Source: Escherichia coli (GTDB lineage Bacteria; Pseudomonadota; Gammaproteobacteria; Enterobacterales; Enterobacteriaceae). Taken from it: a DNA stretch of 3,454 bases. Location of the stretch: the NCBI RefSeq assembly GCF_003334405.1, contig NZ_QOWM01000034.1; one strand, written 5' to 3'. This document shows positions 633 to 751 of the stretch, piece by piece. The notes beneath the pieces were generated by a model. It ran no database searches. It saw nothing but the letters and a program-made list of their open reading frames with translations, and was not told the DNA's origin. Each line of letters opens with the position of its first letter. Position 1 is the stretch's first letter. The position numbers were made by a program, and so were the translations under genes.

Positions 633-650
633 TACTCCATTAATGGAGTA
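633..650 (+). promoter_or_regulatory. Perfect 18-bp palindrome containing the Shine-Dalgarno of the small peptide ORF; candidate translation-sequestering hairpin or operator
   Basis: TACTCCATTAATGGAGTA is its own reverse complement. As RNA it gives a 7-bp stem (UACUCCA/UGGAGUA) with a UUAA loop. GGAG at 645-648 is 7 nt upstream of the ATG at 656. Confidence 0.5.
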
Positions 651-655
651 AACGG

Positions 656-751
656 ATGATTAATCTGTTAATCGTCGTTCTCAGAGCTGTGGTCGCCGTT
701 GCAAACGCGCTGATTGCAGTTCTGGAACTGATCCGCCAGTTCATCGATTGA
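656..751 (+). CDS. Small hydrophobic peptide (31 aa, MINLLIVVLRAVVAVANALIAVLELIRQFID); candidate type I toxin of the ZorO/DinQ/TisB class
   Basis: Own translation: ATG at 656, TGA at 749-751, SD GGAG 7 nt upstream. It forms a single predicted amphipathic/transmembrane helix. The LIAVLELIR motif resembles ZorO and DinQ as I recall them. Absent from the ORF track, presumably because it is below the length cutoff. Confidence 0.5.
   Translation: MINLLIVVLRAVVAVANALIAVLELIRQFID

Follow-up and report, generated by a model that had tools for sequence, protein, structure and literature searches.

A probable DinQ-like DqlB/AgrB type I toxin-antitoxin module on an IncX4-type conjugative plasmid

The chromosomal dinQ-agrAB locus of E. 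coli K-12 (Weel-Sneve 2013, as cited in PMC5066626; Kristiansen 2016, PMC5066626) provides the mechanistic model for the genes described here. The dinQ 5′ UTR contains an SD stem-loop and four sequence elements whose pairings exclude one another (Kristiansen 2016). The full-length dinQ mRNA is inert: sequence element 1 holds element 2, so that element 3 closes the Shine-Dalgarno sequence (SD). In the active +44 species, element 3 is captured by element 2, and binding of AgrB to element 2 recloses the SD (PMC5066626). Stem-loop SL5, which is made of elements 3 and 4, was shown to block translation by SHAPE mapping and in vitro translation (PMC5066626). The related dql family, and with it the name dqlB, dates from 2016 (Kristiansen 2016, PMC5066626). 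In 2025, DqlB of the IncL plasmid pOXA-48 was reported to be toxic, to be countered by AgrB through base pairing, as demonstrated with compensatory mutants, and to cause post-segregational killing; the same paper places dqlB on 53% of IncX plasmids (PMC12365149). Also in 2025, the corresponding locus of the IncX3 plasmid pOXA-484 was reported to be toxic and to stabilise its plasmid (PMC12317039).

Two further systems invite comparison. The hok/sok system of plasmid R1 operates like DqlB/AgrB. Its full-length toxin mRNA is stable, folded and translationally inert until it is processed, its antisense RNA is short-lived, and cells that lose the plasmid are killed by a small membrane peptide. However, the two systems share no sequence homology, and Hok is activated by 3′ trimming, via the overlapping mok reading frame. 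Moreover, Sok is encoded in cis as an antisense to its target, whereas AgrB comes from a separate gene (trans), and its pairing partner is a repeat of its own sequence. In zorO-orzO of E. coli O157:H7, a separately encoded, divergent sRNA pairs with the 5′ UTR of the toxin mRNA, and ZorO, a small hydrophobic peptide, is not known to be under SOS control.

We analysed a 3,454-nucleotide stretch of E. coli DNA, referred to as the window, which is 95-98% identical to ~32 kb conjugative MOBP/MPF_T plasmids of E. coli and Salmonella. Positions 290-810 are 100% identical to the IncX4 plasmid pN19S0552-2 (CP052790.1). We are highly confident that positions 294-805 contain, in full, a plasmid addiction module of type I: a DinQ-like DqlB/AgrB toxin-antitoxin pair carried on an IncX4-type conjugative plasmid. 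The analysis establishes the family membership of the peptide and of the sRNA, the anatomy of the locus, its antisense complementarity, and the conservation and covariation of its RNA. DqlB/AgrB is already a known, validated family; what is new here lies at the level of the allele, whose recognition sequence is rare, whose palindrome is perfect and whose AgrB duplex contains mismatches. By contrast with the window locus, dinQ is chromosomal, SOS-induced and not a plasmid addiction module, and it has two sRNAs (agrA and agrB) where the window has one. The window locus is like those of pOXA-48 and pOXA-484 in its homologous 5′ UTR and SD hairpin, its place on a conjugative enterobacterial plasmid, and its lack of a second (agrA) copy. 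In all three, AgrB is divergent, and its complementarity to the 5′ UTR spans about 33-35 nt.

The dqlB ORF (656..751, plus strand) encodes a 31-aa hydrophobic toxin, MINLLIVVLRAVVAVANALIAVLELIRQFID. When searched against toxin families, this peptide matched the NCBIfam model NF041473 ("DinQ-like type I toxin DqlB"), an equivalog HMM for DqlB, over its full length (residues 1-31 of 31; 71.9 bits against a cutoff of 35; E=2.8e-20). Its score against the model for DinQ proper (NF041472) was 23.5 bits, under the cutoff of 30, with residues 18-30 alone aligning. The peptide carries the conserved MI..I.VL...A.I..LELIR signature of DqlB, and an alignment of seven plasmid DqlB and two DinQ peptides contains 12 invariant columns, LELIR included. 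The LELIR motif is thus common to K-12 DinQ and the window peptide, and 10 of 13 core residues are identical, although DinQ differs in having 27 aa and a GUG start. The 31-aa DqlB peptides of pOXA-48 and pOXA-484 are 81-87% identical to that of the window. Among 14 intact homologous ORFs, most codon differences from the window are synonymous (16 synonymous and 4 nonsynonymous in the IncL copy).

The initial annotation, which was made from the sequence, had described the ORF as unannotated. The ORF track and the GenBank record CP052790.1, which is 100% identical, do lack it, but RefSeq does not: there, the identical peptide (WP_032233319.1) is annotated as dqlB on near-identical IncX4-type plasmids, among them NZ_CP122596.1, where it occupies the same position. 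The omission from the ORF track therefore reflects annotation practice, in that RefSeq annotates dqlB and GenBank record CP052790.1 does not. The initial annotation had further placed the peptide in a ZorO/DinQ/TisB class and preferred a ZorO-like type. The resemblance to DinQ was borne out, whereas the resemblance to ZorO and TisB was not: at E<=1, the peptide matched only DqlB and DinQ in NCBIfam, with no ZorO or TisB match, and AgrB was the sole toxin-antitoxin RNA family found by Rfam in window positions 1-1100, both in libraries that may lack some family models. By the homology of its toxin and antitoxin, which point to DinQ/AgrB, the system is DinQ-like and not ZorO-like.

The regulatory regions align with those of the family. 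A predicted promoter for dqlB was found by promoter scan at 411..440 (plus strand), with its -10 element, TATACT, at 435-440. This element (TATAAT or TATACT) is invariant among 17 aligned loci. Because it is in register with the -10 and +1 of chromosomal dinQ, we place +1 of dqlB at G447. The predicted full-length mRNA extends from 447 to 805 (plus strand), with an approximate 3′ end, and this 359-nt transcript has a minimum-energy fold of -151.9 kcal/mol (z=-7.75). Besides the +1 register, the window shares with K-12 dinQ-agrAB the 5′ lock (S1), SL2, SL4, elements 2, 3 and 4, the SD hairpin, the terminator, and an antisense RNA of the AgrB family. The 5′ UTR can be aligned with those of dinQ and dql: the -10 is invariant, and SL2, SL4, the SD hairpin and the terminator are retained. 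Of the 75 pairs in the consensus fold of 17 loci, 26 show compensatory changes, among them pairs in SL2, SL4 and the terminator.

We located the 1:2, 2:3 and 3:4 pairings of sequence elements in the dinQ-like 5′ UTR of the window and computed their energies. The 5′ lock segment (447..482, plus strand), the counterpart of dinQ sequence element 1 and stem S1, is predicted to pair with the AgrB target: 27 of the 32 target nucleotides are paired with mRNA nucleotides 1-45 in the minimum-energy fold. For 10 of 12 members of the family, dinQ among them, folding predicts the same lock. The counterpart of SL2 is a conserved stem-loop at 517..547 (plus strand; RNAalifold columns 118-148) with compensatory changes at 6 pairs. 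Sequence element 3 (GUCUCUACUCC; 628..638, plus strand) is the anti-SD arm, whose alternative partners are element 2 and the SD. The counterpart of SL9 is a terminator-type stem-loop with a 12-bp stem (771..801, plus strand; RNAalifold columns 384-414), which is conserved with compensatory changes in 17/17 loci. The terminator scan flagged the minus strand, because the T-run on the plus strand is only CCCUUUAAC; this short T-run counts against a DqlB/AgrB module as the best explanation.

The SD of dqlB, GGAG at 645-648 and 7 nt upstream of the ATG at 656, lies inside TACTCCATTAATGGAGTA (633-650), which is its own reverse complement. No other perfect 18-bp palindrome occurs in the window, where 0.013 would be expected under uniform base composition, and 33 of 2000 mononucleotide shuffles of the window contained one. 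The coordinates given by the initial annotation for the palindrome, GGAG and ORF proved exact, and folding predicted the 7-bp RNA hairpin that it had proposed to occlude the SD. RNA 628-655 forms a 7-bp stem with a 4-nt loop at -8.4 kcal/mol (z = -3.6), a value reached by 0 of 200 shuffles. The hairpin is retained in the minimum-energy fold of the predicted 359-nt transcript, with a pairing probability for C637-G646 of 1.00. This SD-sequestering hairpin (633..650, plus strand; loop UUAA) is the counterpart of dinQ SL5. Together with the full-length DqlB match, it supports the claim of a small hydrophobic type I toxin whose SD is held in a hairpin.

A perfect palindrome could also work as DNA, by serving a dimeric regulator as its operator or by forming a cruciform. 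The sequence folds equally well on both strands, and the plasmid encodes H-NS, Hha and ribbon-helix-helix proteins nearby. However, relatives lack the palindrome and keep the pairing. In 17/17 homologues, the plus-strand GGAG pairs with an upstream CUCC or CUCU, with a U·G pair in four of them. For this count, pairs were anchored on GGAG and the nearest upstream CUC[C/U], since MAFFT misplaces the hairpin of the IncL/M/N loci. The flanking pair varies among A-U, U-A, G-C and G·U, the loop-adjacent pair is G-C or U-A, and the loops range from 3 to 7 nt. The U·G and G·U pairs in the stem would be C·A on the other strand, and the homologous dinQ hairpin was mapped by SHAPE as RNA (PMC5066626). 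The plus-strand G·U pairs and the non-palindromic relatives argue that the SD hairpin, which is seen in every intact homologue, is an RNA element and not a DNA operator, and we regard a DNA-level role as extremely unlikely. The window differs from pOXA-48 and pOXA-484 in that its SD hairpin is a perfect 7-bp stem within an 18-bp palindrome.

The second component of the DqlB/AgrB module, which was not recognised in the initial annotation, nor was its target at 548-579, is an AgrB antitoxin sRNA gene at 294..381 on the minus strand. It lies upstream of dqlB and diverges from it. The Rfam covariance model RF02891 matched 381..294 over its entire length (model positions 1-84 of 84; 62 bits against a gathering score of 40; E=2.4e-9). 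The RNA consists of a 5′ recognition segment, an internal hairpin, and a terminator hairpin followed by a U-run, and 294..381 folds at -28.6 kcal/mol (z=-3.7). Homologous AgrB matches share the same relative position in 12 related plasmid loci. A promoter scan predicted a strong promoter, TTGACA-17-TACTAT, at 389..417 (minus strand; 10 of 12 consensus matches); from this promoter and the start of the Rfam match at 381, AgrB would begin at about 381/382. At the Rfam gathering threshold, AgrB was not found in the IncL/M, IncN and FII loci (L013-L016 and L018), and these were excluded from the AgrB analyses. AgrB has been reported in IncL by the pOXA-48 paper (PMC12365149). The AgrB terminator hairpin (294-325) has an A-run on one side and a T-run on the other, and can be read as a plus-strand terminator too, in which TTTTTT comes after 302-318. 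Transcription of the upstream hha/H-NS operon probably stops here as well, with the hairpin acting as a bidirectional terminator.

The target of AgrB in the dqlB 5′ UTR (548..580, plus strand) includes sequence element 2 (GGAGUGGGAC, 557-566). Positions 350-382 and 548-580 form a 33-nt direct repeat with 85% identity, so that about the first 32 nt of AgrB are its reverse complement. This complementarity implies that AgrB would pair in trans with 548-579 of the dqlB 5′ UTR. By ungapped counts, 27 of AgrB nucleotides 1-32 make Watson-Crick pairs with the target, 2 make G·U pairs and 3 are mismatched. Pairing is unbroken over 16 nt at the AgrB 5′ end, and the mismatches and G·U pairs sit beside element 2. 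Both the recognition sequence shared by AgrB and its target and the 3 mismatches in the duplex distinguish the window from pOXA-48 and pOXA-484. Across 14 loci, the 5′ segment of AgrB varies widely, and each cognate target changes along with it. In a cross matrix of AgrB RNAs and mRNAs, the window's own pair obtained the top score, tied with one foreign mRNA (L008); ungapped pair counts were used here because RNAduplex energies were inflated by long spurious extensions.

Based on these features and on the relatives described above, the DqlB/AgrB module would work as follows. The dqlB promoter, which lacks a LexA box, would give rise to a ~360-nt mRNA from G447. In the full-length RNA, the first ~36 nt would pair with +102..+135 and mask the AgrB target. 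Element 3 would thus be left free to form the 7-bp hairpin over GGAG, and the mRNA would be stable and untranslated. Removal of the 5′ end, which occurs at +44 in dinQ, would free element 2 to compete with the SD for the anti-SD arm, and the 31-aa peptide, occasionally translated, would insert into the inner membrane and damage it. The short-lived, divergent AgrB (381..294) would pair by its 5′ end with 548-579 of the processed mRNA and reclose the SD hairpin, probably triggering cleavage by RNase III, as in dinQ. Upon plasmid loss, AgrB would be depleted first and the cell killed. We infer the transcript ends, processing, toxicity, differing RNA half-lives and post-segregational killing from relatives. 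In kind, the initial reading of a type I toxin with an occluded SD and an mRNA that is silent until processed is supported.

Folding calculations bear on the proposed SD switch. We compared enforced alternative structures, since equilibrium folds leave the SD of the window closed. Enforced 2:3 pairing (557-561 with 634-638) lay +20.1 kcal/mol above the minimum-energy fold in the RNA starting at +1, and +1.4 to +2.9 kcal/mol above it after removal of 35-65 nt from the 5′ end. By the same measure, dinQ gave +8.8 kcal/mol at full length and +3.1 after 5′ truncation. The switch thus appears energetically plausible in the modelled window mRNA. The equilibrium result is a caveat: in 21 5′-truncated transcripts, the SD of the window stayed paired, with an unpaired probability of <=0.01 throughout, whereas the SD of dinQ and of most homologues was partly open in the same test. 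When the AgrB target (548-580) was blocked in silico, the SD remained closed, which agrees with the model but is uninformative, since the SD was closed before the block as well.

The tight SD would also fit a decaying or silenced copy, in which the palindrome keeps the SD shut so that no toxin is ever translated, and in which AgrB, with its mismatches, is a bystander like AgrA. The unpaired probability of <=0.01 at all modelled truncations agrees with this reading, and the 3 mismatches and 2 G·U pairs in a 32-nt duplex recall AgrA, the mismatched, inactive chromosomal paralogue. Moreover, the allele is rare, being present (at >=95% identity over 290-810) in 6 of at least 5000 matching plasmids, and degenerate copies do exist, such as one in L007 with an AGAG in place of the SD and a truncated peptide. 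The closed SD, the imperfect duplex and the rarity of the allele likewise weigh against the module as the best explanation. However, the window ORF is intact and identical in independent plasmids, its -10, SD, start codon and terminator are all intact, and the codon changes among homologues favour synonymous sites. AgrB retains the 16-nt perfect seed at its 5′ end, and imperfect duplexes occur in other members of the family as well. The local fold around the SD (-10.4 kcal/mol) falls within the family range of -5.4 to -12.2 kcal/mol, and the open state, at 1.4-2.9 kcal/mol after truncation, is about as close as in the active +44 species of dinQ. We therefore consider a silenced copy very unlikely.

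The LexA box of dinQ (CTGTATGATTATCCAG) overlies its -10, and the window locus has none there. A search of the dqlB promoter (405-450) for LexA boxes with <=2 mismatches returned only CTATGTCAAAAGCCAG, which has 2 mismatches, with CTA replacing CTG. The position homologous to the dinQ LexA box (430-444) reads CTG-N9-CAG, which has the wrong spacing. The initial annotation had found no CTGT-N8-ACAG box; this holds for the promoter, but a site with one mismatch to this consensus is present at 515-530 (CTGGCTGAATAAACAG, CTG-N10-CAG), at +69..+84 in the DNA of the 5′ UTR and overlapping SL2. The locus could be under LexA/SOS control, as is chromosomal dinQ, through this site instead of the promoter. 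In accord with such control, a near-identical site of pTF2 was listed as a putative SOS box of dqlB with a heterology index of 11.64 (PMC12211044), but DqlB was undetected in the proteomics of that study (PMC12211044). Besides its distance from the promoter and the wrong spacing at the position of the dinQ box, constraint on the RNA in the area of SL2 suffices to explain the CTG...CAG symmetry. LexA-like matches with <=2 mismatches, none of them at the promoter, are no commoner in the window than expected by chance (18 found versus 14.1 expected). SOS control through 515-530 is thus improbable.

The recognition sequence (548-580) differs from that of the common mcr-1-type IncX4 allele (L002), while the flanks are ~89% identical. 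Predicted non-cognate AgrB/dqlB duplexes are weaker, which suggests, from the modelled duplexes, distinct AgrB/dqlB specificity classes. The allele of the window might represent a separate recognition class, marked by its own AgrB 5′ sequence, the mismatches in its duplex and an SD hairpin of unusual tightness; in that case, no cross-reaction would be expected with dqlB modules on other plasmids in the same cell. The conserved LexA-like site at 515-530 might also act as an SOS-sensitive roadblock for plasmid dqlB. Either of these would bring a further level of regulation to a system already known, but we hold this proposal to be rather unlikely. Apart from this proposal, the DqlB/AgrB locus has practical importance and brings no new biology. 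Recognising it explains plasmid persistence and makes AgrB a lever for plasmid curing, and GenBank records often leave it without annotation.

Several other features of the window were recorded. About 20 nt past the dqlB terminator, a 59-aa hydrophobic ORF (821..1000) begins behind a strong AAGGAGG ribosome-binding site. It is annotated as hypothetical, directly follows dqlB in IncX1, IncX4 and IncHI2 loci (L001, L003 and L004), and gave no family match in NCBIfam or PHROGs. It might be cotranscribed with dqlB by read-through of the terminator with its weak T-run. In L006, L009 and L010, a TTTAGTTA(CAA) motif comes immediately after the dqlB terminator. Farther downstream, a perfect 16-bp inverted repeat, TTTAGTTACAACATTC / GAATGTTGTAACTAAA (1023-1164), flanks 110 bp that contain the GC-rich hairpin CCGCCCGTACGGGCGG. 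This structure could mark the boundary of a module or be a small insertion.

A partition cassette occupies 1243-1415, 1412-2059, 2056-2113 and 2134-2403. It includes a ParA-type ATPase (NCBIfam ParA_partition, under cutoff) and an 89-aa ribbon-helix-helix/CopG-like protein. Repeat arrays of the GTGACATACA type, probably centromere or operator sites, flank parA, with a near-perfect 49-nt inverted arrangement at 1306-1403. Weak Rfam matches to microRNAs and CRISPR repeats at 1313-1396 and 2729-2765 were rejected as chance matches to partition repeats and AT-rich sequence, the spurious microRNA matches arising from the repeat arrays. Finally, the IncX1 plasmid locus L007 (NZ_CP116484.1) contains two tandem agrB/dqlB modules, at 1015-1098 and 1659-1750. 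The second is intact. The first seems to be decaying: its SD has changed from GGAG to AGAG, and its peptide is truncated and has an altered C-terminus.
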